NCBI GenBank assembly: GCA_040080605.1
Contig: JBEBIB010000002.1
Span: 123,124-187,123, forward strand
Reading direction: 5' to 3'
Origin: Burkholderiaceae bacterium
GTDB lineage: Bacteria > Pseudomonadota > Gammaproteobacteria > Burkholderiales > Burkholderiaceae_C
DNA: 64,000 bases
In this document: in pieces, positions 3,427-39,452 of the stretch
Numbering within the stretch: position 1 is the stretch's first letter
How the letters are laid out: each line of letters begins with the position of its first letter
Made by a program: the position numbers and the translations under genes
The notes under the pieces: model-generated
The model's database searches: none
What the model saw: the letters and a program-made list of their open reading frames with translations, nothing else
What the model was told of the DNA's origin: nothing

Positions 3427-4220
3427 TGCACGAACTGCGCCTCTTCTTCATCGCGCTGCAGTTTCTGACGCGCTTACCCAGCCCGCGCTGGGTCGGTTTC
3501 GAGCCGGAGTGGCTGAACCAGAGCGCGCGCCACTTTCCGGCGGTCGGGCTGCTGGTGGGCGCGGTCGCTGCGCTCGTGCTGGTGCTGGGCCAGGTGCTGT
3601 TCCCGCCGGCGGTGGCGGTCGGTTTGTCGATGGCGGCGACGCTGTGGCTGACCGGCGCGTTCCACGAAGACGGCTGGGCCGACACCTGCGATGCGCTCGG
3701 CGGCGGCGCAAGCATCGGCCGCGAGCGCGCGCTGCTGATCATGAAAGATTCGCGCATCGGCACTTATGGCGCGGTGGCGCTCGTCGTGATGCTCGGGCTG
3801 AAGGCCGCTACGCTGACGGCTTTGCCGCTCGCGCTGGCGGTGCCGGCCTTGCTGTTCGCGCACACCGCCAGCCGCGCGGCGGCGGTCGCGCTGATCCGCT
3901 GGCTGCCGTATGCGGGCGACATCGAACATGCCAAAGCCAAGCCGCTGGCACAGCGCATCTCGGGCGCCGGGCTTGTGGTGGCGCTGGGCTGGGTGCTGTT
4001 GTTGTGCGCCGCGCTGGTGGGGGCCGCGCAGCGCTGTAGCGAACCGGCGGTGTTGCCGGCGATCGTGCTCGGGCTGTTGGTGATTGCCGGCACGGCTGCC
4101 TGGTGCGCGCGCTGGTTCCGCCAGCGGCTCGGCGGCTACACCGGAGACACGCTCGGCGCCACGCAGCAACTCACCGAGTTGCTGGCCTTGCTGGTGTGGC
4201 TCGGCGTGGCGGGCGCCTGA
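3423..4220 (+). CDS. cobS: Adenosylcobinamide-GDP ribazoletransferase (cobalamin synthase)
   Basis: [44 protein letters not shown]. Confidence 0.95.
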
Positions 4221-4786
4221 TGAACACCGCGGCCGCGCTGGCGGTGTGGCGCCATCCCAGGCCGAGCGATGTTCAAGGCCGTTGCATCGGCCGCACCGAC
4301 GTGCGTGTCGACCGCCGCAAGGCCAAGCGCCTCGCGCACCGCATCCGGCGTTGGGCGCGCCAGCACGGCGCGGCGCGTGTGGTGCTCACCTCGAGCCTGC
4401 AGCGTGCGGCGAGCGTCGGTCGCGTTCTCGCCGGCTGGGGCTGGCAACACCACATCGACGCGCGCCTGAACGAAATGGACTTCGGCGAATGGGACGGGCT
4501 GGCTTGGGAAACGATCGGGGCCGACGCCGTGGGCGACTGGTGCGAAGCCTTCGCTGAACACGCCCCCGGCGGCGGCGAGTCGGTCGCGCAATTGTTAGCC
4601 CGTTGCGGCGACTTGATGGCCGAGTTGCATGCCGCTGCAGCGCCGCCCTGCGTGGTGGGCCATGCTGGCTGGATCAGCGCGGCGCAGTGGCTGCAGGCGG
4701 GCAGCTCGCACGCACCGAGCGCCGCCGAATGGCCTGGCGCGATCAGCTACTCGACTCGGGTGCTGCTGGCGTGCTCGGGTCCTTGA
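4220..4786 (+). CDS. Histidine phosphatase family protein, CobC-like (alpha-ribazole phosphatase candidate)
   Basis: RHP...G.TD, SSLQRA, LNEMDFGEWDG, PGGGES, HAGWI; translationally coupled to cobS. Confidence 0.75.
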   Translation: MNTAAALAVWRHPRPSDVQGRCIGRTDVRVDRRKAKRLAHRIRRWARQHGAARVVLTSSLQRAASVGRVLAGWGWQHHIDARLNEMDFGEWDGLAWETIGADAVGDWCEAFAEHAPGGGESVAQLLARCGDLMAELHAAAAPPCVVGHAGWISAAQWLQAGSSHAPSAAEWPGAISYSTRVLLACSGP

Positions 4787-26467: not shown

Positions 26468-28900
26468 TCAGGCGGTGAGCGGCTGGAACTGGCGGGTGTC
26501 GACCGAAGCGGCTGCGTGTTCGAACCAGGGGTCGGCCGCACCGTCGAGCGCGAACTGCAACTGTTCCCACAGCGCCTTGCGGCCGGCGTCGTCGTCGACG
26601 ATGTGCTTCTTCACGTGGTCGATGCCGACGCGGGCGATGTAGTGCACCGTGCGTTCGAGGTACCAGCCTTCCGAACGATAGAGCTGCAAAAAAGCACCGG
26701 TGTACTCGAGCACTTCTTCCGCGGTCTTGAGCTTCACGAGGAACTGCGCCACCTCGGTCTTGATGCCGCCGTTGCCACCGATGTAGATTTCCCACCCCGA
26801 GTCGACACCGATCACACCCACGTCCTTGATGCCGGCTTCGGCGCAGTTGCGCGGGCAGCCGCTGACGGCGAGCTTGACCTTGTGCGGCGAGTACATCGCC
26901 CACAAAGCGCGTTCGAGGTCGATGCCCATCTGCGTGCTGTCTTGCGTGCCGAAGCGGCACCATTCGCTGCCGACGCAGGTCTTCACCGTGCGCAGTGCCT
27001 TCGCGTAAGCCTTGCCGGTGGGCATGCCGATGTCTTTCCAGACGTTGACCAGGTCTTCCTTTTTTACGCCCAGCATGTCGATGCGCTGGCCGCCGGTGAC
27101 CTTCACCGTCGGGATCTTGTACTTGTCCACCGCGTCGGCGATGCGCCGCAACTCGTCGGCCGTGGTCGTGCCGCCCCACATGCGCGGGATCACGCTGTAC
27201 GTGCCGTCCTTCTGGATGTTGGCGTGGCTGCGTTCGTTGATGAAGCGGCTCTGCGGGTCATCTTTCGCTTCTTTCGGCCAGGTGCTGATCAGGTAGTAGT
27301 TGATCGCCGGGCGGCAGCTCGAGCAGCCGTTCGGCGTGCGCCAGTCGAGGTGCTCGTGCACGCTGGCGATGTTCAGCAGGTGGTGCTTGCGGATCGCATC
27401 GCGTGCGTCCTGGTGGCTGGCGTCGGTGCAGCCGCAGATCGCCTTCTTCTTTGGCATGGCCGAGTAGTCGCCACCCGCCGTGAACATCAGCAACTGCTCG
27501 ACAAGGCCGGTGCACGAGCCGCACGAGGCACTGGCCTTCGTGTGTTTGCGCACCTCTTCGAGCGTGAACAGGCCTTTTTCCTTGATCGCCTTGCAGATGG
27601 TGCCCTTGTTCACGCCGTTGCAGCCGCAGACCTCGGCGCTGTCGGGCATGGTCGCGGCGTGGCTGTGGCCTTCATGGCCCACGTCGCCGATGTTCGATTC
27701 GCCGAACATGAGCTTGTCGCGGATGTCGGCCACGCTGCGGCCTTCGCGCAGCAGTTTGAAGTACCACGAGCCATCGACCGTGTCGCCGTACAGGCAGGCG
27801 CCGACGAGCTTGTCGTCCTTCAGGATCAGCTTTTTGTAGACGCCGCCGTAGGGGTCGCTCATCACGATCTCTTCGCAGTCGTCGCCCCCCATGAAGTTGC
27901 CGGCCGAGAACAGGTCGATGCCGGTGACCTTGAGCTTGGTGGACGTCAGCGAACCCTGGTAACGCCCGATGCCGAACTGCGCCAGGTGCGTGGCACACAC
28001 CTTCGCCTGCTCGAACAGCGGCGCCACCAGCCCGTAGGCGATGCCGCGGTGCGCGGCGCATTCGCCGACCGAATAGATGCGCGGGTCGGTGATGGTCTGC
28101 ATCGTGTCGTTGACGACGATGCCGCGGTTGCAGTGCAGCCCGATCTTCTCGGCCAGCTGCGTGTTGGGGCGGATGCCGGCGGCCATCACGACGAGGTCGG
28201 CTGGCACTTCGCTGCCGTCCTTGAAGCGGATCGCGCGCACGCGGCCGGTCTCGTCGCCGAGCAGCGCTTCGGTGTGCGCGCCGAGCAGGAACGTCAGGCC
28301 GCGCGCCTCGAGCGATTTCTGCAGCAGCTTGCCGGCCACGCTGTCGAGCTGCCGGTCCATCAGCCACGGCGCCAGGTGCACCACACTGACGCTCATGCCG
28401 CGCAGCATCAGGCCGTTCGCCGCTTCCAGGCCGAGCAGCCCGCCGCCGACGACCACGGCATGCTTGAAGCGCGTGGCCGCGTCGATCATCGTGTTGGTGT
28501 CGTGGATGTCGCGGTAGGCGATCACGCCTTCGAGGTCCTTGCCCGGCACCGGCGGAATGAACGGGTTCGAGCCGGTCGTGACGAGCAGCCGGTCATAGGG
28601 CACGACGGTGCCGTTGTCCGAGGTCACCGTGCGCTTGGTGCGGTTCACCTCGACCACCTTCTGCCCCAGGTGCAGCGTGATGCCGTTGTCGGCATACCAG
28701 CTCAGCGGGTTGAGCACGATCTCGTCGAGCGTCTGCTCGCCGGCGAGCACGGGGCTCAGCAGGATGCGGTTGTAGTTCGGGTGCGGCTCCGCCCCGAACA
28801 CCGTGATGTCGTACAGGTCGGGCGCGATCTTCAGCAGCTCTTCGAGCGTGCGCACGCCGGCCATGCCGTTGCCGACCATCACGAGTTTCATCTTGTCCAC
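26468..28900 (-). CDS. nirB: Assimilatory NAD(P)H nitrite reductase large subunit
   Basis: VGNGMAG FAD site, GGGLLGLE, BFD Cys pairs (CGCNG, CGSC), CVGSEWC and GCPRNC siroheme/4Fe-4S; GTG with GGAG RBS. Confidence 0.96.
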   Translation of the reverse strand: MDKMKLVMVGNGMAGVRTLEELLKIAPDLYDITVFGAEPHPNYNRILLSPVLAGEQTLDEIVLNPLSWYADNGITLHLGQKVVEVNRTKRTVTSDNGTVVPYDRLLVTTGSNPFIPPVPGKDLEGVIAYRDIHDTNTMIDAATRFKHAVVVGGGLLGLEAANGLMLRGMSVSVVHLAPWLMDRQLDSVAGKLLQKSLEARGLTFLLGAHTEALLGDETGRVRAIRFKDGSEVPADLVVMAAGIRPNTQLAEKIGLHCNRGIVVNDTMQTITDPRIYSVGECAAHRGIAYGLVAPLFEQAKVCATHLAQFGIGRYQGSLTSTKLKVTGIDLFSAGNFMGGDDCEEIVMSDPYGGVYKKLILKDDKLVGACLYGDTVDGSWYFKLLREGRSVADIRDKLMFGESNIGDVGHEGHSHAATMPDSAEVCGCNGVNKGTICKAIKEKGLFTLEEVRKHTKASASCGSCTGLVEQLLMFTAGGDYSAMPKKKAICGCTDASHQDARDAIRKHHLLNIASVHEHLDWRTPNGCSSCRPAINYYLISTWPKEAKDDPQSRFINERSHANIQKDGTYSVIPRMWGGTTTADELRRIADAVDKYKIPTVKVTGGQRIDMLGVKKEDLVNVWKDIGMPTGKAYAKALRTVKTCVGSEWCRFGTQDSTQMGIDLERALWAMYSPHKVKLAVSGCPRNCAEAGIKDVGVIGVDSGWEIYIGGNGGIKTEVAQFLVKLKTAEEVLEYTGAFLQLYRSEGWYLERTVHYIARVGIDHVKKHIVDDDAGRKALWEQLQFALDGAADPWFEHAAASVDTRQFQPLTA

Positions 28901-28941
28901 CGCAGGCTCCAGGTTGTCGAACGGCAGTGGTGCCGCAGGCT

Positions 28942-29742
28942 TCAAGCCACCTGTTTTTCCACGTGCCCGTGGCGGGTGTAGAGGAACTCGAGAACCTCCT
29001 TGCGGAAGTGCACGTAGCGGCTGTCTTCAGCCAGCTCGACGCGGTTGCGCGGGCGTGGCAGGTCGACGCGCAGGATCTCGCCGATGGTGGCCGCCGGCCC
29101 GTTGGTCATCATCACGATGCGGTCGCTGAGCAGCACCGCCTCATCGACATCGTGCGTCACCATCACCACGGTGCTCTGGGTGCGCAGCACGATCTTCAGC
29201 AGCTCGTCTTGCAGGTGCGCGCGGGTGAGGGCGTCGAGCGCGCCGAAAGGCTCGTCCATCAGCAGGACCTTCGGCTCCATCGCCAGCGCGCGGGCGATGC
29301 CGACACGCTGTTTCATGCCGCCAGAAATCTCGTGCGGTCGCTTCGTCAGTGCATGGCCCATGCCGACGAGTTCGAGCGCCGCCTTGGTGCGCTCGTCGAG
29401 CTGGGCTTTACTCTCTTTCTGGCCGAACACCCGCTCGACCGCCAGGTGCACGTTCTCGAAGCAGGTGAGCCAGGGCAAAAGCGAGTGGTTCTGGAACACC
29501 ACGCCGCGCTCCGGGCCGGGGGCGGCGATCTCGCGGTTATCGCACAGCAAGACGCCGCTGGTCGGCAGCGTCAGGCCGGCGATCAGGTTCAGCAGCGTCG
29601 ACTTGCCGCAGCCCGAATGCCCGATCAGCGTGACGAACTCGCCCTTGGCGACCGTGAGGTCGATTTCGCGCAGCGCGTGGAAGCGGCCCTTTTTTGTCGT
29701 GAACACCATTTCGGCGTTCTGCACTTCGATGAAGTTCTTCAT
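28942..29742 (-). CDS. Nitrate/nitrite ABC transporter ATP-binding protein (NrtC/D, NasD type)
   Basis: GHSGCGKST, ISGGMKQR, LLMDEPF. Confidence 0.92.
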   Translation of the reverse strand: MKNFIEVQNAEMVFTTKKGRFHALREIDLTVAKGEFVTLIGHSGCGKSTLLNLIAGLTLPTSGVLLCDNREIAAPGPERGVVFQNHSLLPWLTCFENVHLAVERVFGQKESKAQLDERTKAALELVGMGHALTKRPHEISGGMKQRVGIARALAMEPKVLLMDEPFGALDALTRAHLQDELLKIVLRTQSTVVMVTHDVDEAVLLSDRIVMMTNGPAATIGEILRVDLPRPRNRVELAEDSRYVHFRKEVLEFLYTRHGHVEKQVA

Positions 29743-29761
29743 GGCGAGGGTTCCTTGAAAG

Positions 29762-30667
29762 TCAGACTTCGTCGTAGCTGAAGCGCTTGGCGATCGACAC
29801 CAGCAGCCATTCGAGCAACATGCCGACCACGCCGATCACGAGGATGGCGATCAGGATGTGCGGCACGTTCAGGTTGTTCCATTCGTCCCAGACCCAGAAG
29901 CCGATGCCTACGCCGCCGGTCAGCATCTCGGCTGCCACGATCACGAGCCATGCCGTGCCCACGCTCAGGCGCACGCCGGTCAGCATGTAGGGCAATACCG
30001 AGGGGAAGAGGATTTTCGTGACCACCTTCCATTCGCTCAGGTTCAGCACCCGCGCGACGTTCAGGTAGTCGACCGGCACACGCTGCACGCCCACGGCGGT
30101 GTTGATGATCATCGGCCAGATCGAGCAGATGAAGATGGTCCAGATCGCGGCCGGGTTGGCGGCCTTGAACACCAGCAACCCGATCGGCAGCCAGGCCAGC
30201 GGCGACACCGGCCGCAGCATGCTGATGAGCGGCGACAGGGCGCGGCTGACCACCTCGAAACGCCCGATCACGAAGCCCATCGGAATGCCGATCAGCGCCG
30301 CCAGACCGAAGCCCAGGCCCACCCGTTCGAGCGAGAACAGGATGTTCCAGCCGATGCCCTGGTCGTTCGGCCCCTTGCTGTAGAACGGGTCGGCAAACAG
30401 CTTGACCGCCGCATCGAAGGTGGCCGCCGGGGTCGGAAAGGTCGTGCTCTTCATCGTCAGCAAGGCCCAGATACCGATCAGCAGCGCCACGCCGAACAAG
30501 GGCGGCAGCACCTTGCCAGCGAGTTCGCCCCAGTCGTAGGCGGGCTTGCTCGCCGGCGTGGCCTCTGCGGCCGTGACGACAGGCGCCGTCGCGGCCGATG
30601 GGGCGCTCGCAGCGGGCTTCACTTCAAGCGAGGTCTGGCGGGGTGAGTGGAACACTGCGGCAACCAT
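29762..30667 (-). CDS. Nitrate ABC transporter permease (NrtB/NasE type)
   Basis: PNDQGIGWNI, RPVSPLAWLP, AEMLTGGVGIGFWVWDEWNN. Confidence 0.93.
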   Translation of the reverse strand: MVAAVFHSPRQTSLEVKPAASAPSAATAPVVTAAEATPASKPAYDWGELAGKVLPPLFGVALLIGIWALLTMKSTTFPTPAATFDAAVKLFADPFYSKGPNDQGIGWNILFSLERVGLGFGLAALIGIPMGFVIGRFEVVSRALSPLISMLRPVSPLAWLPIGLLVFKAANPAAIWTIFICSIWPMIINTAVGVQRVPVDYLNVARVLNLSEWKVVTKILFPSVLPYMLTGVRLSVGTAWLVIVAAEMLTGGVGIGFWVWDEWNNLNVPHILIAILVIGVVGMLLEWLLVSIAKRFSYDEV

Positions 30668-30696
30668 GTCGGTTCTCCTGTCGATGCGCGAGGAAA

Positions 30697-31950
30697 TCAG
30701 GCCTTGATGGCGAAACTGTCGGCGTACTTCTTCGGATCCTTGCCGTCCCAGACCACGCCGTCCATCAGCTTCGACGTGCGCATCGGGTCCTTCGGAACGT
30801 TGATCTTCAGCGCCCCGGCGGCCTGCTTGTAGAGCTCGATCTGGTTGATCTGCTTGGCCACGCCCAGATAGTCGGGGTGTTCCTTCAGCAAGCCCCAGCG
30901 CTTGTGCTGGGTCAGGAACCACATGCCGTCGCTCAGGTACGGGAAGTTGACCGCGCCATCGTTGAAGAACTTCATGTGGTTGGGGTCGTCCCAGGTCTTG
31001 CCCATGCCGTTCTGGTAGCGGCCCAGGATGCGCTGGTTGATCGCGTCGACGCCGGTGTTCACGTAGCTCTTGTCGGCCACGGTCTCGGCCATCTTCATCT
31101 TGTTGGCCAGGCTGGCGTCGATCCAGCGGCCGGCCTCGAGGATGGCCATCATCACGGCGCGGCAGGTGTTGGGGTGCTTCTTGACGAAGTCGGCCGTGGT
31201 GCCGAGCGTCTTCTCGGGGTGGTCGCGCCAGATGTCCTGCGTGGTGATGGCGGTCACGCCGATGTTGTCCATGATGGCCCGGTGGCCCCAGGGCTCGCCG
31301 ACGCAGAAGCCGTCCATGTTGCCGACGCGCATGTTGGCCACCATCTGCGGCGGCGGCACCGTGATGAGCTTCGCGCCACTGACGGGGTTGATGCCCGAGG
31401 CGGCCAGCCAGTAGTGCATCCACATGGCGTGCGTGCCGGTCGGGAAGGTGCCTGCGAACGTGTATTCGCGCTTCTCCTTGGCCATCACCTTGGCGAGCGA
31501 CGGGCCGTCGACGGCGCCCTTGTCGGCCAGCGTCTTCGACAGCGTGATGGCCTGGCCGTTGTTGTTCAGGCTCATCAATACGGCCATGTCCTTCTTCGGC
31601 CCGCCGATGCCCAGGTGCACGCCGTAGACCAGGCCGTAGAGCACGTGTGCCATGTCGAGCTCGCCGTTGACGAGCTTGTCGCGCACGCCGGCCCACGAGG
31701 CTTCCTTGGTCGCCACGATCTTCACGCCGTACTTCTTGTCGAAGCCGAGCACCGAGGCCATCACGACCGAGGCGCAGTCGGTCAGCGGAATGAAGCCGAT
31801 GCGCACCTCTTCCTTTTCCGGCTTGTCGGAGCCCTGCGCATAAACCGCGGCTTGCAGCCCCGGAACGAGGCCGGCGGCGCTCGCAGCAGCGGCGCCCTTG
31901 ATCAGGTTGCGTCTGCTCATGCTGATCTTTCGTGTGGAAATTTGTGTCAT
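30697..31950 (-). CDS. Nitrate/nitrite ABC substrate-binding protein (NrtA/NasF type), Tat-like signal
   Basis: SRRNLIK twin-Arg, GFIPLTDCAS, NGQAIT, FPTGTH, GEPW, DHPEK (Lys typical of nitrate-binding NrtA). Confidence 0.92.
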   Translation of the reverse strand: MTQISTRKISMSRRNLIKGAAAASAAGLVPGLQAAVYAQGSDKPEKEEVRIGFIPLTDCASVVMASVLGFDKKYGVKIVATKEASWAGVRDKLVNGELDMAHVLYGLVYGVHLGIGGPKKDMAVLMSLNNNGQAITLSKTLADKGAVDGPSLAKVMAKEKREYTFAGTFPTGTHAMWMHYWLAASGINPVSGAKLITVPPPQMVANMRVGNMDGFCVGEPWGHRAIMDNIGVTAITTQDIWRDHPEKTLGTTADFVKKHPNTCRAVMMAILEAGRWIDASLANKMKMAETVADKSYVNTGVDAINQRILGRYQNGMGKTWDDPNHMKFFNDGAVNFPYLSDGMWFLTQHKRWGLLKEHPDYLGVAKQINQIELYKQAAGALKINVPKDPMRTSKLMDGVVWDGKDPKKYADSFAIKA

Positions 31951-31973
31951 GGCTGGTGCTGGGGTCAAGGTTC

Positions 31974-32101
31974 TGAAAAACAAAAGCGGCGTCCGCACGT
32001 GTCGGGCCGTGAAGCCGCGATCGGTGGGGACGCCGTCGTCCTGAAGCAACCGCACCAGCGCTGGTGCGGAAAATTCATTCAAGAGACCGCCGTTGGCCTC
32101 T
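31974..32101 (-). ncRNA. ANTAR (NasT/NasR)-responsive leader: two hexaloop hairpins plus overlapping terminator
   Basis: Hairpin1 AGAGGCC-AACGGC-GGTCTCT (32082-32101); hairpin2 GGAC-GACGGC-GTCC (32028-32041); terminator stem CGGCGTCC/GGACGCCG (32028-32035 with 31987-31994) then CTTTTGTTTTT; nasT adjacent. Confidence 0.8.
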
Positions 32102-32113
32102 CAGGCTTGCTTA

Positions 32114-32129
32114 TGCAATGCGCGTGCCA
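32114..32129 (-). promoter_or_regulatory. Sigma54 -24/-12 promoter of nitrate ABC operon
   Basis: TGGCAC-GCGCA-TTGCA, exact consensus spacing. Confidence 0.85.
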
Positions 32130-32157
32130 GCTGAAACAGGATCATCGGGTGCGGGTT

Positions 32158-32174
32158 TGCACCGAGACCGTGCA
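32158..32174. promoter_or_regulatory. NtrC-binding site
   Basis: TGCAC-N7-GTGCA (TGCACCGAGACCGTGCA). Confidence 0.75.
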
Positions 32175-32178
32175 TCGC

Positions 32179-32811
32179 TCAGGCGAGCAGATCCGACACG
32201 TCGAGGATGCGTTGAGCCACGTCGGCCACCTTCAGGCCCTTGTCCATCGCCGTCTTGCGCAGCCGCGCGTAGGCGTCTTCTTCGCTCAGGCCGTTGCGTG
32301 TCATCAGGATGCCCTTGGCGCGGTCTATGGTCTTGCGCTCGGAGAGCTGGCTGCGAGCGTCGGCCAGCTCGCGGCGCATGCATTCTTCGTGCTGGAAACG
32401 CGCCAGGGCCACGTCGAGCACCGGGCGCACCCGTTCGGGCGCCATGCCGGCGACGACGTAGGCCGTGACGCCCGCCGCGATGGCGTCGCGCACGTGGCTG
32501 GTGTCGTTGTCTTCGGTGAACAGCACGATCGGGCGGCGCGCGTCACGCGTGGCCATCACCACGTGCTCCAGCGTGTCGCGGGCCTGGCTTTCGGCGTCGA
32601 CGATGATCATGTCGGGGCTGATCTGCGCCAGCCGCTCGGGCAGGAACACGTCGGCGGGCAACACGGCCACGATGTTGTAGCCGTCCTGCAGCAAGCCGAT
32701 GCGCAGGATGCGCGAGCGCTCCGCCTCGATCCGGGCCTCCGGGTCCGAGGGGTCGGGCCACAGCGAGTCGGGGGCGATGATGACGAGGCGCAGGTCTTGG
32801 ACCGAAGACAT
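32179..32811 (-). CDS. nasT: ANTAR-domain antiterminator (NasT family)
   Basis: Pseudo-receiver (PDMIIVD..S..RDTLE) plus ANTAR (LSERKTIDRAKGILM...EEDAYARLRKTAM). Confidence 0.9.
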   Translation of the reverse strand: MSSVQDLRLVIIAPDSLWPDPSDPEARIEAERSRILRIGLLQDGYNIVAVLPADVFLPERLAQISPDMIIVDAESQARDTLEHVVMATRDARRPIVLFTEDNDTSHVRDAIAAGVTAYVVAGMAPERVRPVLDVALARFQHEECMRRELADARSQLSERKTIDRAKGILMTRNGLSEEDAYARLRKTAMDKGLKVADVAQRILDVSDLLA

Positions 32812-32823
32812 GCGGGGAGAGGG

Positions 32824-32839
32824 AGCAACATTCACGCCA
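32824..32839 (-). promoter_or_regulatory. Putative sigma54 promoter of nasT
   Basis: Minus strand TGGCGT-GAATG-TTGCT, 12 nt before ATG 32811. Confidence 0.55.
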
Positions 32840-32919
32840 AGCCCGGGCCATGGCACGGGCGGGCAGCGAAGCTCAGCGGGTCTGGGGCAGTCGGGCCTGG
32901 CGGCGCGCCTGAGCCGGGC

Positions 32920-33207
32920 TCAGCGCCGGTCGGTGTGGCTCGAGATCGCGCGGCGCAGCCAGCCACCGAGCGGGCGCAAGGAACCGAACAACGAGTCGGG
33001 GACGAGCGAGTCACGCTTGGAGATCATGCCGCGGGCGTCGAGCATCTCGATGAACTGGCGCACTTCCTGGCGGCGAATGCCGCTCACGCCCACCAGTTGC
33101 GTCAACGACATGTGCCGGTGCGACATGTTGCTCAGCATGCGGCGAAACGCAGTGCGGTCAAACGGAGCATTGAGCTCCGGCCAAGCGGCGAGGCGGTATT
33201 CCTTCAT
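32920..33207 (-). CDS. Hypothetical 95-aa protein, possible winged-HTH
   Basis: GGAG RBS; segment MSLTQLVGVSGIRRQEVRQFIEMLDARGMI has HTH-like amphipathic pattern. Confidence 0.65.
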   Translation of the reverse strand: MKEYRLAAWPELNAPFDRTAFRRMLSNMSHRHMSLTQLVGVSGIRRQEVRQFIEMLDARGMISKRDSLVPDSLFGSLRPLGGWLRRAISSHTDRR

Positions 33208-33363: not shown

Positions 33364-33735
33364 TCAGGAAGGTTTGCTCAACGCACGCTGAACCTCGCTC
33401 TGCCACGGCAGCGCATGCACCAACTGGTGCAGGTGAACAGTGACCTGCACGTGGCTCAAGGCTTCGCCATGGGCATCGAGCAGGCGAAGGTTGGTGACCA
33501 TGCCGAACGGGTCGGCCATGGCGACCACGCCCTGCTGCAGTTCGACCCAGTCCCACGCCACGCCGGCCGAGCGGTCTTCGCTCGCGTCGCCCCACAGGGT
33601 CTGGCCGCTGCACGGCCCGGCCTCGTCGCCAAAAGTCAACACGCGCGTGCCGAGGTGGACAAGATGCAGATGCGAGGCCGAGCTCGCCTGCCACAATACA
33701 GGCGGCCACGCGTACACAATCCATGCAGGTGTCAT
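33364..33735 (-). CDS. RsaM-like (DUF4902-type) quorum-sensing modulator candidate
   Basis: SGQTLW...AGVAWDW...MVTNLRLLDAHG resembles the RsaM-family G-Y-T-E-W...GWDW...SN..L.D pattern as recalled; divergent from luxR; start uncertain. Confidence 0.6.
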   Translation of the reverse strand: MTPAWIVYAWPPVLWQASSASHLHLVHLGTRVLTFGDEAGPCSGQTLWGDASEDRSAGVAWDWVELQQGVVAMADPFGMVTNLRLLDAHGEALSHVQVTVHLHQLVHALPWQSEVQRALSKPS

Positions 33736-33822
33736 TCGGGTGGTCAACGTCGTCGCGCCGATGATGTGTCCTCGGTGGGTGAATCGATAAGCGTTAGTGT
33801 GGCAACGGAATTTGCTTTTGCC

Positions 33823-33842
33823 ATCTGTCAACCCTGTCAGGT
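33823..33842 (-). promoter_or_regulatory. lux-box-like element 2 (between RsaM-like gene and luxR)
   Basis: Minus strand ACCTGACAGGGTTGACAGAT; CTG-N10-CAG core; 14/20 identical to element at 34654. Confidence 0.55.
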
Positions 33843-33902
33843 TCGTGTCTTGCAGGTGTGCTGGCATGTGAAGGATTGCGCGTTGGGGTGAGAAGGGGCG
33901 GC

Positions 33903-34616
33903 ATGCTTCAGGGTGGGTTCACGGAAGTGCTGGGGAGTCAAAGCCGGGACGAGTTCCGGGATGAGGTCGTGGGCTTCACGAAGAGGCTCGGCTTCGCGAC
34001 CGTCTCGGCCACCGTCGTCATCGACCACCTGCTCGGCGAGGCCGAGTTCATCACCGTCGACAACACGCCGCAGGCCTACCGCGACGCTTTCCAGAACCGC
34101 GACAACTGGCGCCTCGATCCGGTCATGCAGCACTGCAAGCGCCAGAGCATGCCCATCATCTGGAGCCAGAAGACCTACGTGGCACAGGGCTTGGGCGACA
34201 AGTGGGAAGAGCAGGCCCGCTACGGTTATCGCAACGGCATCGCGCTGGCGCTGCACATGCCCGAAGGCCGGCATTTCTTCCTCGGTGTCGACCGCGACCA
34301 GCCGGTGCCGATGCACGCCGGCGAGCTGACGCGCGTGGTCGCCGACCTGCAGCTCTTCGCCGTGCACGCCCAGGACGCCGCCTTGCGCATCCTTGCGCCC
34401 GGTGGCTCCGAGCCGGGCAACCCGTCGCTCACGCCGCGCGAGCTCGAAACCCTGCGCTGGACGATGGAAGGGCGCACCGCGCGCGAAGTCGGCGAAGTGC
34501 TGGGCATCACCGAGCGTACGGCCGCGCTGCACGTCAACAACGCGACCCACAAGCTGGGCTGCGTCAACAAGCACCAGGCGGTGCTCAAGGCCCTGCGCCT
34601 CGGCTTGATTCGCTGA
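33903..34616 (+). CDS. LuxR-family regulator with autoinducer-binding domain (LuxR solo)
   Basis: N-terminal Autoind_bind pattern (DNTP..Y...F........DPVMQHC....PIIW...G) and C-terminal LTPRELETLRW..EG....EVGEVLGITERTAALHVNNATHKLG. Confidence 0.92.
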   Translation: MLQGGFTEVLGSQSRDEFRDEVVGFTKRLGFATVSATVVIDHLLGEAEFITVDNTPQAYRDAFQNRDNWRLDPVMQHCKRQSMPIIWSQKTYVAQGLGDKWEEQARYGYRNGIALALHMPEGRHFFLGVDRDQPVPMHAGELTRVVADLQLFAVHAQDAALRILAPGGSEPGNPSLTPRELETLRWTMEGRTAREVGEVLGITERTAALHVNNATHKLGCVNKHQAVLKALRLGLIR

Positions 34617-34653
34617 GAATTCCCGGAAAGACCGGGTGTCGCGTCAACCCCCA

Positions 34654-34673
34654 CCCTGTAAGACTTGACAGTT
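34654..34673 (+). promoter_or_regulatory. lux/cep-box-like operator upstream of peptide gene
   Basis: CCCTGTAAGACTTGACAGTT; CTG-N10-CAG core; 13/20 to V. fischeri lux box ACCTGTAGGATCGTACAGGT. Confidence 0.7.
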
Positions 34674-34746
34674 ACGCAAAAGCTCCACTCCTGTTTGAAT
34701 GGCCGCAGTGCACGGATGGCGTGTACCCCACCTTCAGGAGCAGAGC

Positions 34747-34938
34747 ATGCAACAACGTCAAATCACCGCCTCCCAATTCGCCACCCAGTCCGTTGCCGGC
34801 TCGCAGGCATCGACCAAGAGCGCCCCGATCGCACTCGACGCGGCCACGCTGAAGCTGGTCGCCGGTGGCGTGCAGACGGCCGGCCCGAACGGTGGCTGGT
34901 CCAGCGCCGGTGTCGAAGGCCCGAACGGCGGCTGGTAA
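34747..34938 (+). CDS. Double-glycine-leader peptide precursor (63 aa) with repeated GPNGGW core
   Basis: AGGAG RBS 6 nt before ATG; leader end LDAATLKLVAGG (hydrophobic at -12/-7/-4); core VQTAGPNGGWSSAGVEGPNGGW; directly upstream of HlyD and C39 ABC exporter. Confidence 0.85.
   Translation: MQQRQITASQFATQSVAGSQASTKSAPIALDAATLKLVAGGVQTAGPNGGWSSAGVEGPNGGW
34882..34935 (+). repeat. 18-bp direct repeat (17/18 identical, 36-nt period) encoding GPNGGW twice
   Basis: GGCCCGAACGGTGGCTGG (34882-34899) and GGCCCGAACGGCGGCTGG (34918-34935). Confidence 0.95.
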
Positions 34939-34953
34939 GGCAGCCCGGGTTTC

Positions 34954-36213
34954 GTGGCCAGCCTGTTCCGCCCCGAAGCCCTGGAAAACCGCCAGCGCGA
35001 CTGGCTGGGCAGCATTCAGCTGATCCGGCCGATTTCACTTGGCGTATTGACCCTTTTTGTGGTCGCGACCGCCGTGGCCGTCGCTTCCTATTTGGTGCTC
35101 GGCGAATACACCCGCAAGGCCCGTGTCAGCGGCTATCTCGTTCCCGACCAGGGTGTGATCCGCCTGATGTCGCCCCAGGCGGCAACGCTGGTGGAGTCGC
35201 ACGCCGTCGAAGGTGCGTCGGTGCGCCGCGGCGACGTGCTGTTCGTCCTGTCGGTCGGCCAGTCCACGCTCAGCGGCGACACACAGGCCGCCGTCAAATC
35301 GAGCCTGGCGCTGCGCGAGCAGAGCCTGCAAGGGGCGGCTCGCCAGCGCGGTGCGCTCGAGCAGACCCAGCTCGGCGCGCTCGACCGCCAGATCGAAGAC
35401 ATGCGGCGCGAGCTCGGCTCCATGGCCGCCGAGGCCGATCTGCAACGCGAGCGGCTCACGCTGGCCCAGCAAGCCCAGGCGCGGCTGGAATCATTGCGCA
35501 ACGACAACTTCGTGTCGTCGGCGCAGGTGCAGACGAAAGCCGAGGAAGTTCTCGGTCTGAAAGCGCAGATGCAGGCGCTGGAGCGCCAACGCTCGGCACA
35601 CTTGCGCGAAATCACCGCGCTGCAGGCGCAACGCCGCGAGTTGCCGATGCGCGTGCAGGCGCAACAAGGCGAGATCGACCGCGATCTGGCGGCGCTGGCC
35701 CAGCAGGCCGCCGAAAACGAGGCCCGCCAGCGCATCGTGGTGCGCGCGCCGCAAGACGGTGTGCTCACCGGCGTGCTCGCCCAGGTCGGCCAGACTGTCA
35801 CGCCGACGGTTGCGATGGCCAGCTTACTTCCCGCCAACGCACGCCTGCAGGCGCAGCTCTTCGCACCGTCGAGCGCGGTCGGCTTCGTCCGCCCGAACCA
35901 GCCGGTGCAGTTGCGCTACCAGGCTTTCCCGTACCAGAAGTTCGGCCACCAGACCGGTGCGGTGGCGCTGGTGTCGCGTTCACCGCTGCAGGCCACCGAG
36001 CTCGCAGGCTTGCCGATGCAGGCCGCTGCGAACGCGGCGAGCGAACCGCTGTACCGCATCACCGTCACGCTCGACCAGCAAAGCGTGGCTGCGTACGGCC
36101 AGGCCCAGGCGCTGGTGCCCGGCATGCAGCTCGAAGCCGATGTGCTGCTCGACCGGCGCCGCCTGATCGAGTGGCTGTTCGAGCCGGTGCTCGGCATCGC
36201 CGGTCGGGTGTAG
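34954..36213 (+). CDS. HlyD-family membrane fusion protein (CvaA/MchE-like)
   Basis: SLFRPEAL N-terminus, one TM, EYTRKARVSGYLVP, coiled coil, VRAPQDG, YQAFPYQKFG, PGMQLEADV; GTG start. Confidence 0.93.
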   Translation: MASLFRPEALENRQRDWLGSIQLIRPISLGVLTLFVVATAVAVASYLVLGEYTRKARVSGYLVPDQGVIRLMSPQAATLVESHAVEGASVRRGDVLFVLSVGQSTLSGDTQAAVKSSLALREQSLQGAARQRGALEQTQLGALDRQIEDMRRELGSMAAEADLQRERLTLAQQAQARLESLRNDNFVSSAQVQTKAEEVLGLKAQMQALERQRSAHLREITALQAQRRELPMRVQAQQGEIDRDLAALAQQAAENEARQRIVVRAPQDGVLTGVLAQVGQTVTPTVAMASLLPANARLQAQLFAPSSAVGFVRPNQPVQLRYQAFPYQKFGHQTGAVALVSRSPLQATELAGLPMQAAANAASEPLYRITVTLDQQSVAAYGQAQALVPGMQLEADVLLDRRRLIEWLFEPVLGIAGRV

Positions 36214-36217
36214 GCGC

Positions 36218-38365
36218 TTGGCTTCCGTGCTCGACGGTCTGCGCTTGGGTCTGACGGGCCGGCGGCTGCCGATGATCTTGCAGACCGAGGCCGCCGAGTG
36301 CGGCCTGGCCTGCCTGGCGATGGTGGCCTCGCACCACGGCTTTCGCAGTGACCTGCCGACATTGCGCCAGCGCTTTTCGGTCTCGCTCAAAGGCGCGACC
36401 ATGGCCGACCTGGTGCGCCTGGCCGGTCACATGCGGCTGAACGCACGCGCGCTGCGGGCCGAGATGGAGCACCTGCCCGAACTGGCGCTGCCTTGCATCC
36501 TGCACTGGGACCTGAACCACTTCGTCGTGCTGAAGGAAGTCCGCCGCGGCGTCGCCGTGATCCACGACCCGGCGCGCGGCGTGCGCAGCCTGCCGCGGGC
36601 CGAGCTGTCGAAACACTTCACCGGCATCGTGCTCGAGCTGGCGCCGCAGGCCGAGTTCGAACCGCAGACCGCGCGCCAGAACGTCTCGTTGCGCCAGTTG
36701 CTCGGCCGCGTGACCGGCCTGAAGCGCTCGCTGCTGCAGATCTTCACGCTGGCGGTGGCGCTCGAAGCGTTCACGCTGCTGTCGCCGTTTTTCCTGCAGT
36801 GGGTCGTCGACAGCGTGCTGCTCAGCGCCGACCGCGACCTGCTCATCACGCTCGGGGTCGGCTTCGCCTTGCTGGTGCTGATCCAGGTCGGCGCCAGCGC
36901 GATCCGCTCGTGGGCCGTGTTGCACCTGTCGGCCACGCTGAACCTGCAGTGGCTCTCGAACGTGTTCGCGCACCTGATGCGCTTGCCGGTCTCGTGGTTC
37001 GAGAAGCGCCACACCGGCGACGTGATGTCGCGCTTCGGCGCGGTGCAGAAGATCCAGCAGACGCTGACCACGAGTTTCGTCGAGTCGGTGCTAGACGGCG
37101 TGCTCGTCGTCGTCACGCTGGCAATGATGTTCATCTACAGCGGCACGCTGACGGCCATCGCCTGCGCCAGCGTCGCGGCTTATGCGCTGTTGCGCTGGGC
37201 CTTTTTCAGGCCGCTGCGCGAAGCGACCGAAGAGTCGATCATCTTCGAGGCCAAACGCTCCAGCCATTTCCTCGAATCGCTGCGCGGCGTGCAGTCGATC
37301 AAGCTCTTCAACCGCCAGGAAGACCGCCAAGCGCGTTTCATGAACCTCGTGGTCGACGCGATGAACGCCAACATCGCCACGCGCAAGCTCGACCTGATGT
37401 TCAGCGTCTTGCACAAGCTGGTGTTCGGGCTGGAGCGCATCGCGATTGTCTGGGTCGGCGCCTTGCTGGTGATGGACCACATCTTCTCGGTCGGCATGCT
37501 GTTCGCGTTCATCGCCTACAAGGAACAGTTCGCGCAACGTGTGAGTGCGCTGATCGACAAGGTGGTCGAGCTCAAGATGCTCAAGCTGCAGGGCGAGCGT
37601 CTGGCCGACATCGTGCTCACGCCGCCCGAACCGCAGGCCGAGTTGGCGCCGCCGCTTCCGGCAGGGCGCGTGAGCCTGGAACTGCGCAATGTGAGCTTCG
37701 GTTATTCCGAGGCCGAGCCCGAGGTGCTGCGGCACCTGAACCTCGTCATCGAACCGGGCGAGTCGGTGGCCATCGTCGGCCCGTCGGGTTGTGGCAAGAC
37801 GACGCTGCTCAAGCTGATGCTGGGCGTGCACACGCCTCAGACCGGCGAGATTCGCGTCGGTGGCCTGGCCTTGCGCCAGCTCGGCCTGCGTGCCTGGCGC
37901 GACATGATCGGCACCGTGATGCAGGACGACCAGCTCTTCGCCGGCTCGATCGCCGACAACATCAGCTTCTTCGACCCCGAGGCCGACCCGGCGTGGATCA
38001 CGCAGTGCGCGCGCATCGCCGCCGTGGCCGACGAGATCGGCGCGATGCCGATGGGCTTTCACACGCTGATCGGCGACATGGGTGCCAGCATTTCCGGCGG
38101 CCAGAAGCAGCGCATCCTGCTGGCGCGGGCGCTTTACAAAAGGCCGAAGCTGCTGTTCCTCGACGAAGCGACCAGCGCGCTCGACGTCGAGCGGGAACGC
38201 GAAGTGAACCAGGCCATTCGCCAGCTCGACCTCACGCGCATCATCGTCGCGCACCGGCCCGAGACCATCGCGTCGGCAAACCGCGTGATCGTGCTGCAGG
38301 ACGGCAAGATTTCGCAGGACCTGCGCAGCGTGCCCGGCGGCGGGGGCAGCACGCACGCCCGCTGA
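36218..38365 (+). CDS. Peptidase-containing ABC transporter (C39 + TM + ATPase; CvaB/MchF-like)
   Basis: [16 protein letters not shown] (catalytic Cys), [11 protein letters not shown] (His), IHDP (Asp), [25 protein letters not shown]; TTG start. Confidence 0.95.
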
Positions 38366-38405: not shown

Positions 38406-39452
38406 ATGAACATCCTCGGCATCGAATCGTCGTGCGACGAAACCGGCGTGGCGCTGGTGCGTGCCGCCGCGAGCGGCACGCCGACACTGCTGGCCCACGC
38501 GCTGCACAGCCAGATCGACATGCACCAGGCTTATGGCGGCGTGGTGCCCGAATTGGCTTCGCGCGACCACATCCGGCGCGTGCTGCCACTCGCCCGGCAG
38601 GTCATGCAGGAGGCTGGTGCAACGCTGGCCGACATCGATGTCGTGGCCTACACGCGCGGCCCGGGGCTGGCCGGTGCCCTGCTGGTCGGTGCGGGCGTGG
38701 CGTGTTCGCTGGCCGCGGCACTCGGCCGGCCCGTCGTCGGTGTGCACCACCTCGAAGGCCACCTGCTGTCGCCGTTTCTCTCGGCCGACCCACCCGAGTT
38801 CCCGTTCATCGCGCTGCTGGTGTCGGGCGGCCACACGCAGTTGATGCGGGTCGACGACGTGGGCCACTACGAACTGCTCGGTGAGACCATCGACGACGCG
38901 GCCGGCGAGGCCTTCGACAAATCGGCCAAGCTGCTGGGCCTCGGCTACCCGGGCGGGCCGGCGCTGGCGCGCTTGGCTGCATTCGGCGATGCGTCGAGCT
39001 TCACATTGCCACGCCCCTTGCTGCACAGCGGCAACCTCGATTTTTCGTTCGCGGGCCTGAAGACGGCGGTTCGCACGCAGGTGCTCAAGCTCGGAAGCAA
39101 TGTGTGCGAGCAGGACAAGGCGAACCTGGCGGCGGCCACGCAACAAGCCATCGTCGACGTGCTGGTGCGCAAGTCGATCCAGGCGCTGCGCGACACCGGC
39201 CTGAAACGCATCGTCGTCGCAGGCGGTGTCGGGGCGAATGCGCTGCTGCGCGAACAACTGAACCGCGAATGCACGAAGCGCCAGATCAGGGTGCACTACC
39301 CCGAGCTGGCGCTGTGCACCGACAACGGCGCGATGATCGCGCTCGCCGCGGCGATGCGTCTGCAACGCGAGAGCACGGCAGCGTCGAACGACTACGCCTT
39401 CAACGTGCTGCCACGCTGGCCGCTGGCGACTGCGAACGCCGCGGTCAGTTGA
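38406..39452 (+). CDS. tsaD: tRNA N6-threonylcarbamoyladenosine transferase
   Basis: [55 protein letters not shown]. Confidence 0.97.

Follow-up and report, generated by a model that had tools for sequence, protein, structure and literature searches.

LuxR-type receptors are the textbook sensors of N-acyl homoserine lactones (AHLs), whose textbook counterpart in Gram-positive bacteria is signaling by ribosomal peptides. Here we analyze a luxR gene in a 64,000-nucleotide stretch of a Burkholderiaceae genome (assembly GCA_040080605.1, contig JBEBIB010000002.1, positions 123,124 to 187,123; the whole stretch is called the window below), together with the small peptide gene downstream of it. An earlier reading of the window from its letters (the sequence-only reading) had proposed that this gene encodes a LuxR solo with a non-canonical ligand pocket. 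Our analysis indicates that its product is probably a cytoplasmic receptor whose former AHL pocket binds a ribosomal hexapeptide of the form x-P-x-x-x-W, here GPNGGW, derived from the adjacent downstream precursor.

Like CepR of the CepR/CepI/BcRsaM system, and like LasR, RhlR, QscR, and TraR, the receptor has a two-domain architecture and the corresponding fold, and it keeps the residues D70, P71, W85, and G113 (TraR numbering) as well as E178, L182, and G188. The locus is also like CepR/CepI/BcRsaM in that a box precedes the signal gene and luxR adjoins an RsaM homologue. It differs in the lack of LuxI from the genome, in the ribosomal peptide gene and exporter found at the luxI position, and in the replacement of Y53, W57, and Y61.

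AHL receptors are defined by six pocket residues (W57, Y61, D70, P71, W85, and G113) and three DNA-binding residues (PMC10134790). LuxR solos for other ligands, such as OryR, XccR, and PipR of plant-associated bacteria (PAB) and PluR and PauR of Photorhabdus, resemble the receptor studied here in being Autoind_bind proteins without LuxI, in which substitutions of hallmark pocket residues mark a changed ligand. The sequence-only reading had cited the W57M/Y61W pair of the PAB solos as a precedent, and the literature bears this out (PMC10134790); those solos neighbor a proline iminopeptidase (pip) gene, whereas our receptor has Tyr/Phe at the two positions and no pip gene beside it. PluR and PauR carry TYDQCS and TYDQYI for WYDPWG and sense pyrones or dialkylresorcinols without autoinduction, and the gene for the signal synthase adjoins that of PluR (PMC10134790). 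In our receptor the motif reads Y-F-D-P-W-G, the locus has no pyrone or dialkylresorcinol synthase, and the neighbor is a gene-encoded peptide with an exporter. The box before the signal gene would imply autoinduction in this case, unlike in PluR/PauR.

On the peptide side, this locus resembles the streptococcal ComC/ComAB and BlpC/BlpAB systems: the leader is of the double-glycine (GG) type and hydrophobic at −4, −7, and −12, an accessory protein accompanies the C39 peptidase ABC exporter, and the mature peptide, which is predicted in our case, differs strongly from strain to strain. The streptococcal peptides, however, have at least 17 residues, and their sensors are histidine kinases in the membrane, whereas the peptide here is predicted to have about 6 residues, is often encoded in multiple copies, and is linked to a cytoplasmic LuxR. 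In its proposed working, the system resembles the RRNPP regulators of Firmicutes (Rap, Rgg, NprR, PlcR, and PrgX), with a short linear exported peptide, re-import, a cytoplasmic transcription factor, and pherotype divergence (PMC13220807). RRNPP regulators are tetratricopeptide repeat (TPR) proteins with Sec or PptAB export and Opp import, whereas a LuxR alpha-beta-alpha fold and predicted peptidase ABC export are found here; a Pfam scan of the LuxR revealed no TPR family, and it is not an RRNPP member. The nearest report in the literature is that of the diketopiperazine-binding LuxR orphans LuxR01 and LuxR02 of Shewanella baltica, which are reported to respond to the Pro-containing, peptide-derived cyclo(L-Pro-L-Leu) and cyclo(L-Pro-L-Phe) (cited in PMC13220807). 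As described there, these ligands are cyclic dipeptides that no gene encodes, whereas the peptide here is gene-encoded, and five of its six residues are constrained or co-vary with the receptor. Among the mostly open full texts covered, including the reviews PMC10134790 (2023) and PMC13220807 (2026), no LuxR that senses a gene-encoded peptide and has this cassette is described.

The LuxR-type receptor and its pocket

Pfam analysis of the 237-amino-acid (aa) luxR product revealed an Autoind_bind domain (PF03472, E 1.1e-23) and a GerE domain (PF00196, E 1.5e-12). NCBIfam gave no equivalog, with SdiA scoring 62.7 against a cut-off of 350 and TraR 37.7 against 250. An AlphaFold2 model built from 81 orthologues had a mean predicted local distance difference test score (pLDDT) of 86.2, and its best Foldseek matches were QscR (3.4e-16) and RhlR (1.8e-15), followed by TraR, SdiA, and LasR (E range 3e-16 to 1e-9). 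All 81 orthologues are 237 aa long and the 80 from genome collections start MLQGGF-like, which fixes the luxR start codon.

Formal alignment was performed with HMMER against the solved LasR, RhlR, QscR, and TraR. The query segment N54-T55-P56-Q57-A58-Y59-R60-D61-A62-F63 aligned with LasR N55-Y56-P57-A58-A59-W60-R61-E62-H63-Y64, D72-P73 with D73-P74, W87 with W88, and G112 with G113; in the TraR match (1h0m), query residues 51-232 corresponded to chain residues 49-230 (offset −2). In TraR numbering, three AHL-contacting residues are therefore replaced (Y53 by Thr55, W57 by Tyr59, and Y61 by Phe63), while D70 (D72), P71 (P73), W85 (W87), and G113 (G112) are retained, giving the six-residue motif Y-F-D-P-W-G. 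The hand alignment of the sequence-only reading, which had placed Tyr at W57 and Phe at Y61 and found the other four residues kept, thus agrees with the formal alignment at all six positions; the change of Y53 to Thr had not been named in it. The DNA-binding hallmarks E178, L182, and G188 are present as E180, L184, and G190; among the 81 orthologues, E180 and G190 do not vary, and L184 is conserved in 90% or more.

The source genome (5.25 Mb, 100% complete) contains a single Autoind_bind (PF03472) gene, namely this luxR, and no match to LuxI (PF00765). As a control, the same search found LuxI in 4 of 5 other Burkholderiales genomes, beside LuxR genes, and it found none in the closed genome G109, which carries a 65%-identical orthologue of this LuxR. 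The protein is a LuxR solo, that is, an Autoind_bind receptor without a LuxI partner, and it has neither the canonical AHL pocket pattern nor a cognate LuxI.

Across the 81 orthologues, D72, P73, V74, W87, and G112 are invariant, and with a further 56 hold-out orthologues, whose pattern matches that of the 81, D72, P73, W87, and G112 are invariant in 137/137. Position 55 (TraR Y53) is Thr or Ala in the 81 orthologues and never Tyr in the 137. Position 59 (TraR W57) is Tyr in 63 of the 81, Phe in 14, Trp in 3, and Cys in 1, with Trp in just 6/137 overall; position 63 (TraR Y61) is Phe in 62, Tyr in 7, and Ile in 5, besides others. Nearly all of the 113 nearest full-length representatives (35–61% identity) have N-[TAVIM]-P-x-x-[YF], and about 3 look canonical, so the non-AHL-like pocket appears to mark a large clade. 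Judged from these alignments, the Y/F pocket pattern is a feature of the clade and not chance, and positions 59 (Y/F/W) and 63 (F/Y/I/M) are likely to be tunable specificity positions, not a fixed signature.

The most variable part of the receptor lies between the W57 and D70 equivalents, at about residues 57-71, where column entropy reaches 2–3.2 bits in the 81 orthologues, whereas the helix-turn-helix is almost invariant. The ratio of nonsynonymous to synonymous substitution rates (dN/dS) in this segment was about 0.33–0.38, compared with 0.08 in the rest of the ligand-binding domain and 0.04 in the DNA-binding domain (22–28 sister pairs), that is, about 4–9 times the value for the rest of the protein, with dS near saturation.

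The peptide precursor encoded downstream of luxR

The 63-aa precursor has the core VQTA-GPNGGW-SSAGVE-GPNGGW, with the stop codon right after the last Trp. Its leader ends in L-DAAT-L-KL-V-AGG, which is of the GG type with hydrophobic residues at −4, −7, and −12. No Pfam or NCBIfam family matched the precursor.

For comparison, 80 related loci with LuxR identities of 67–97% were assembled from Rhizobacter, Methylibium, Caldimonas, Piscinibacter, Rubrivivax, and Ideonella assemblies. An ORF (open reading frame) ending in P-x-x-x-W was present downstream of luxR in 78/78 loci having at least 800 bp of downstream sequence, with a GG-type leader in 76/78. In random 800-bp segments from the same loci, such an ORF occurred in 38/628 (6%), and one with a leader in 2/628 (0.3%). 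More broadly, 104 of 400 sampled genomes of the same Burkholderiales family, and 57 of 201 genera, carry a relative of this LuxR.

The related loci together with loci of 52–66% LuxR identity gave a set of 136 precursors, in which the invariance of Pro and Trp belongs to the motif by which the ORFs were selected. These precursors contain 92 distinct C-terminal hexamers, and 121 of them end exactly at Trp. The cultured Rhizobacter sp. Root404 is among the carriers of the cassette (locus L034), with the hexamer APRGGW. The number of x-P-x-x-x-W copies is one in 71 precursors, two in 53, four in 4, and five in 2. A GG-type leader is recognizable in 130/136, and in 36 of these 130 the hexamer directly follows the predicted cleavage site (e.g., GG-LPKATW and GG-TPKGTW, cleaved after the second Gly). 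Direct tandem hexamers are found in loci L016 (GPNSTWGPNSTWGPNSTWGPNGTW) and L077 (GA followed by GPNGTWGPNGTW). The cores have a minimum of 6 residues and a median of 15, and contain no Cys. Together, the tandem hexamers, the hexamers directly after the cleavage site, and the Trp-terminal ends point to x-P-x-x-x-W as the functional unit of the precursor.

Two loci with LuxR proteins of 53–57% identity, L146 (downstream of luxR 3648-4406) and L147 (downstream of luxR 3522-4241, minus strand), have RsaM and a multi-copy peptide with a 12-residue leader without Gly-Gly: MKPSHALDASSL-SPKGGW-SPKGGW-W-APKGGW and MHTAQNLTSVSS-(LPRGGW)x4, respectively. No HlyD or ABC exporter is present at either locus, and an MnmG-like gene is found instead.

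More distant LuxR relatives (39–44% identity) in L154, L156, L157, L159, and L160 mostly adjoin an rsaM-like gene, with none in the short locus L159. Downstream of these luxR genes lie putative tiny ORFs with [FIL]-P-x-x-G-G-W-like ends (...IPRVGGW, ...FPTTGGW..., ...LPRGGWLC, and ...SFPRTGW), with no exporter nearby. Beside a 36%-identical LuxR from another family of the order, a convergent ORF (L087:1218-1404) has a good double-glycine leader (...ELDVELLEQVGGG) and a longer core that ends in ...PTQGF instead of Trp.

Co-variation of the peptide and the receptor

The hexamer positions were named m0-P-m2-m3-m4-W, and 79 peptide/LuxR pairs served as the training set. In these pairs, F126 occurred with Gly at m0 in 30/31, and where m0 was Ala, Ser, Leu, or Thr, position 126 was V, L, I, or M. 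At position 69, a large residue (W, M, Y, R, Q, or C) accompanied Gly at m4 in 33/33, and G69 accompanied a non-Gly m4 (Thr, Ser, Asn, or Tyr) in 30/30. Where position 100 was Lys, m2 was Asn in 25 pairs and His in 12; K100 accompanied Lys/Arg at m2 in 0/23, these being paired with L, M, I, or V at 100. At m3, Asp occurred with K64 in 3/4 and Arg with D64 in 4/4. C114 was associated with Ala at m0 in 11/13. Tyr59 accompanied Asn or His at m2 in 38/38 training and 6/6 hold-out pairs (all 44), and Val after Pro paired with A75/T75 in 4/4, resting on 3 independent events. The links are size-for-size and charge-for-charge, which would be expected of a shared cavity.

As a phylogenetic control, a maximum-likelihood tree was built without columns 55-75 and 126-127, and independent pairs were counted. 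The 69–m4 link showed about 8 same-direction changes and 0 opposite (p 0.008), the 126–m0 link 6 and 0 (p 0.03), and the 100–m2 link about 6.6 and 0 (p ~0.016). An unbiased co-change scan of 119 variable columns against 4 peptide positions (476 tests, 39 edge-disjoint sister pairs) placed 126 with m0 at the top (p 2.6e-5, Bonferroni 0.012).

Pocket positions were mapped by homology to LasR, using the residue list in PMC8296597 and the HMMER alignment, which mapped 14 variable columns to the pocket. Six of the top 12 columns by mutual-information z-score were pocket-mapped, namely 126 (LasR A127), 100 (F101), 114 (T115), 35 (L36), 38 (L39), and 59 (W60), an enrichment with a hypergeometric p of 5e-4 and a Mann-Whitney p of 0.0014. 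Other top columns were 64, 68, and 69, between the Y61 and D70 equivalents, and 43, in the loop covering the LasR pocket.

The rules were then applied unchanged to the hold-out set of 56 further pairs, each less than 90% identical to any training sequence. G69 went with a non-Gly residue at m4 in 16/17 (p 4.5e-6) and W69 with Gly at m4 in 10/10; F126 was present in 9/9 receptors whose peptide has Gly at m0 (p 9e-8), and K100 went with a non-Lys/Arg residue at m2 in 8/8 (p 2e-4). The proposal of the sequence-only reading that the Y/F pair suggests a different ligand class, consistent with a peptide, gains support mainly from this co-variation at AHL-pocket-homologous residues.

The co-variation also bears on two other explanations of the receptor. 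The first is that the LuxR merely regulates the peptide operon and senses a foreign AHL or another small molecule, e.g., a cyclo(X-Pro) diketopiperazine from the peptide N-terminus, the peptide itself being a bacteriocin or serving some other role. The GG-leader peptide, HlyD, and peptidase ABC exporter do form a classic microcin/bacteriocin export set, the equivalents of D70, W85, and G113 are kept, and hydrogen-bond donation would still be possible from a Tyr at W57; the review describes S. baltica LuxR solos as reported to bind cyclo(Pro-Leu) and cyclo(Pro-Phe) (cited in PMC13220807). However, linkage alone does not explain why pocket-mapped co-variation arose repeatedly on independent branches and reappears among the hold-out pairs, and the position of TraR Y53 is never Tyr and that of W57 is rarely Trp (6/137), so we consider this explanation unlikely. 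Two specific forms of it were rejected: a bacteriocin, on the grounds of the short cores without Cys, the absence of immunity and modification genes at the locus, and the co-variation; and a diketopiperazine, which carries the first two residues alone, whereas the LuxR co-varies with positions 3, 4, and 5 of the peptide as well.

The second explanation is a ligand-independent solo whose pocket is filled by its own bulky side chains, and which is constitutive and controlled by RsaM and its expression level. Such solos (CepR2 and MalR) are listed in a review (PMC10134790), and in the receptor of the window, W69 and F126 are bulky and lie in the pocket or close to it. These two residues, however, become Gly and Val/Leu exactly when the matching peptide position gains bulk, as a shared cavity predicts, and hypervariability alongside complete conservation of D72, P73, W87, and G112 (137/137) would not persist in a dead pocket. 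We regard ligand independence as very improbable, and favor binding of the hexapeptide in the former AHL pocket.

Four loci, L141:4037-8274, L142:4142-7543, L143:3651-5896, and L144:3114-5954, contain tandem arrays of 3–5 LuxR paralogues (~40–64% identity) beside a single peptide gene. The paralogues differ at positions 64, 69, 100, and 126 and keep D72, P73, W87, and G112; they may be receptors for the peptides of other strains.

Operators, RsaM-like protein, and exporter

The region between luxR and the peptide gene contains a CTG-N10-CAG dyad with the consensus CCCTGTAAGACTTGACAGTT in 79/80 loci, and a second box lies 60–90 bp upstream of luxR in 78/80. A scan of the genome with a matrix from these boxes revealed three strong sites, namely box 1 (28.6) and box 2 (26.7) of the locus and a site on contig C51 (24.6), with the next site at 13.8. 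The consensus is nearly that of the Burkholderia cep box. A consensus sigma-70 promoter scan of 33650-35000 gave no site.

Some 290 bp downstream of the third strong box, ACCTGTCACCTCTTACAGAT at C51:96604, a cluster of roughly 12 kb begins (C51:96604-108000), with a lower GC content of 57–60%. By eye from the translations, the cluster encodes ArgG-like, ornithine carbamoyltransferase (OTCase)-like, ArgH-like (two), ATP-grasp-like (three), membrane desaturase-like, and major facilitator superfamily (MFS)-like proteins. This cluster may serve small-molecule biosynthesis under control of the LuxR.

The protein encoded divergently from luxR gave, as a single sequence, a weak match to Pfam DUF4902 (E 1.2e-3) and no match in a PDB search. 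Its orthologue profile matched PDB 4o2h, BcRsaM (E 7.5e-5), and its AlphaFold2 model (pLDDT 87.7) gave 4o2h as the sole Foldseek matches below E 0.001 (best E 8e-7, TM 0.69). Since the orthologue profile and the fold both match BcRsaM, the RsaM assignment is firm. The gene adjoins luxR even in relatives of 40% identity.

Genes for HlyD and then the C39 peptidase ABC exporter are usually next after the peptide gene, and the exporter was present at every locus resembling that of the window that was spot-checked with enough flank. In the window, the C39 motif reads QTEAAEC28G with the catalytic Cys28, and the His lies in NHFVVL (read by eye); the transporter scored 520 bits against NCBIfam NHLM_micro_ABC1, below its cut-off.

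In a third explanation, the LuxR senses the peptide inside the producer, either as an intracellular fragment or as the free C-terminus of a precursor that has not been exported, reporting precursor load or export in a private feedback. The LuxR lacks a signal peptide, no importer is encoded nearby, and the 121 precursors that end at Trp have a free Trp carboxylate before any processing. L146 and L147 keep LuxR, RsaM, and the multi-copy peptide without GG leader, HlyD, or ABC exporter, which leaves room for an intracellular-sensing variant. However, the internal repeat copies (2–5 per precursor) would be purposeless if just the C-terminal tail were read, and m0 co-varies most with the deep LasR-pocket positions 126, 114, 35, and 38, which is hard to fit with an attached leader. 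The exporter at the spot-checked loci also speaks against sensing inside the producer, as do the 92 distinct hexamers, which look like between-strain pherotype divergence. Such private sensing is in our view improbable, and an exported and re-imported hexapeptide remains our preferred reading.

Organization of the locus and its surroundings

The order of features at the locus is a 95-aa ORF (−), the rsaM-like gene (−), box 2, luxR, box 1, the precursor gene, and the genes for HlyD and the C39 ABC exporter; coordinates are summarized in Table 1. Housekeeping genes flank this block, with the ANTAR regulator of a nitrate cluster on one side and tsaD on the other. The genes at the locus include no immunity, modification, histidine kinase, importer, or pip gene.

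The nitrate-assimilation cluster comprises a large NirB-like nitrite reductase, an ABC ATPase, a permease, a binding protein, and the ANTAR regulator. The gene names of this cluster and tsaD were read from translations, and the ANTAR protein alone was checked with Pfam. A 51%-identical copy of the 95-aa ORF stands beside luxR/rsaM in L158, and this ORF may be a conserved accessory gene.

Table 1. Features of the luxR locus and its flanks (window coordinates)
Feature	Position	Strand	Basis or description
Nitrate-assimilation cluster	26468..32856		
NirB-like nitrite reductase	26468..28945	-	
ANTAR regulator	32179..32856	-	
95-aa ORF, downstream of rsaM-like gene	32920..33207	-	weak winged-helix-like Pfam matches, E 0.02-0.2
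RsaM-like gene, divergent from luxR	33364..33735	-	orthologue profile and fold
cep/lux-type box 2	33823..33842	+	ATCTGTCAACCCTGTCAGGT; ~80 bp before luxR start, in divergent rsaM-like/luxR intergenic region
luxR, LuxR-type receptor (Autoind_bind + GerE), 237 aa	33903..34616	+	ATG-started ORF, translation, Pfam
Codon of T55 (TraR Y53)	34065-34067		
Hypervariable receptor segment, ~residues 57-71, between W57 and D70 equivalents	34069..34115	+	column entropy; includes peptide-covarying 59, 64, 68, 69
Codon of Y59 (TraR W57)	34077-34079		
Codon of F63 (TraR Y61)	34089-34091		
Codon of D72	34116-34118		
Codon of P73	34119-34121		
Codon of W87	34161-34163		
Codon of G112	34236-34238		
cep/lux-type box 1, between luxR and peptide gene	34654..34673	+	CCCTGTAAGACTTGACAGTT (CTG-N10-CAG)
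Peptide precursor, 63 aa	34747..34938	+	41-aa double-glycine leader ending ...LDAATLKLVAGG; 22-aa core
HlyD-family periplasmic adaptor	34954..36213	+	Pfam HlyD_3, HlyD_D23; NCBIfam type_I_hlyD E 3.8e-34
Peptidase-containing ABC transporter (C39 peptidase + ABC membrane + ABC ATPase)	36218..38365	+	Pfam Peptidase_C39 E 8.9e-37, ABC_membrane, ABC_tran
tsaD	38406..39452	+	

Proposed signaling circuit

We infer processing of the precursor to the hexapeptide, re-import, binding, and activation as the steps of the circuit. The precursor would be cut after its Gly-Gly leader and exported by the adjoining C39-peptidase ABC transporter with the HlyD adaptor. The spacers, here VQTA and SSAGVE, would be trimmed, and the Pro at position 2 would stop aminopeptidases. 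The mature peptide would then re-enter the cell and bind in the LuxR pocket, where D72, P73, V74, W87, and G112 may hold its constant Pro and Trp parts. The variable residues would be read by other positions: the residue before Pro by 126, 114, 35, and 38, the residue after Pro by 100, 59, and 68, m3 by 64, and the residue before Trp by 69. In the receptor of the window, these positions are F126, A114, S35, and V38; K100, Y59, and N68; Q64; and W69, respectively. The changes Y53T, W57Y, and Y61F would be part of this retooling of the pocket for a peptide. Liganded LuxR would bind the CTG-N10-CAG boxes before the peptide operon and luxR, leading to autoinduction, with the RsaM-like protein as a putative brake on the circuit. 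The peptide gene and exporter would thereby take the place of luxI in a CepR/RsaM/CepI-type logic.

Several observations weigh against this circuit. Both hexamers of the window's precursor would need VQTA and SSAGVE to be removed by a further protease, no importer is encoded near the locus, and L146 and L147, with a peptide but neither GG leader nor exporter, indicate that ABC export is not universal. In the co-variation data, the Y59 link to Asn/His, perfect in counts, was not significant after phylogenetic pairing. The linker columns 167, 170, and 173 also ranked high in the co-change scan, which indicates residual confounding by divergence; for this reason, our conclusions rest on the direction of the changes, the enrichment of pocket positions, and the hold-out pairs. 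Three of the co-varying pairs, the first to be noticed, were picked by eye before testing, which the unbiased scan and the hold-out set mitigate and do not remove, and the co-varying residues were placed in the pocket solely by homology to LasR. Finally, dN/dS in residues 57-71 did not exceed 1, so positive selection was not shown in the 22–28 sister pairs, for which dS is near saturation.

Implications

With moderate confidence, we propose that these loci represent a large, undescribed class of Gram-negative quorum sensing, in which a cytoplasmic LuxR reads a gene-encoded x-P-x-x-x-W peptide. The class would descend from a CepR/RsaM/CepI-type system in which the synthase was replaced by a peptide gene, and it would have diversified into many pherotypes (92 hexamers in 136 loci) through matched changes of peptide and pocket, with stacks of 3–5 paralogues that may hear the peptides of neighbors.

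If true, a LuxR that reads a gene-encoded peptide would join the AHL and peptide paradigms and provide a new candidate ligand class for thousands of orphan LuxR solos. With the signal gene beside the receptor, the ligand would be readable directly from the genome, and the co-variation would supply a ready specificity code, in which LuxR positions 69, 100, 126, and 64 correspond to peptide positions 5, 3, 1, and 4. The cassette would also offer orthogonal peptide/receptor pairs for synthetic biology. It is common in lineages from soil, freshwater, and activated sludge, such as Rhizobacter, Methylibium, Caldimonas, Piscinibacter, and Rubrivivax, and may shape the behavior of those communities.

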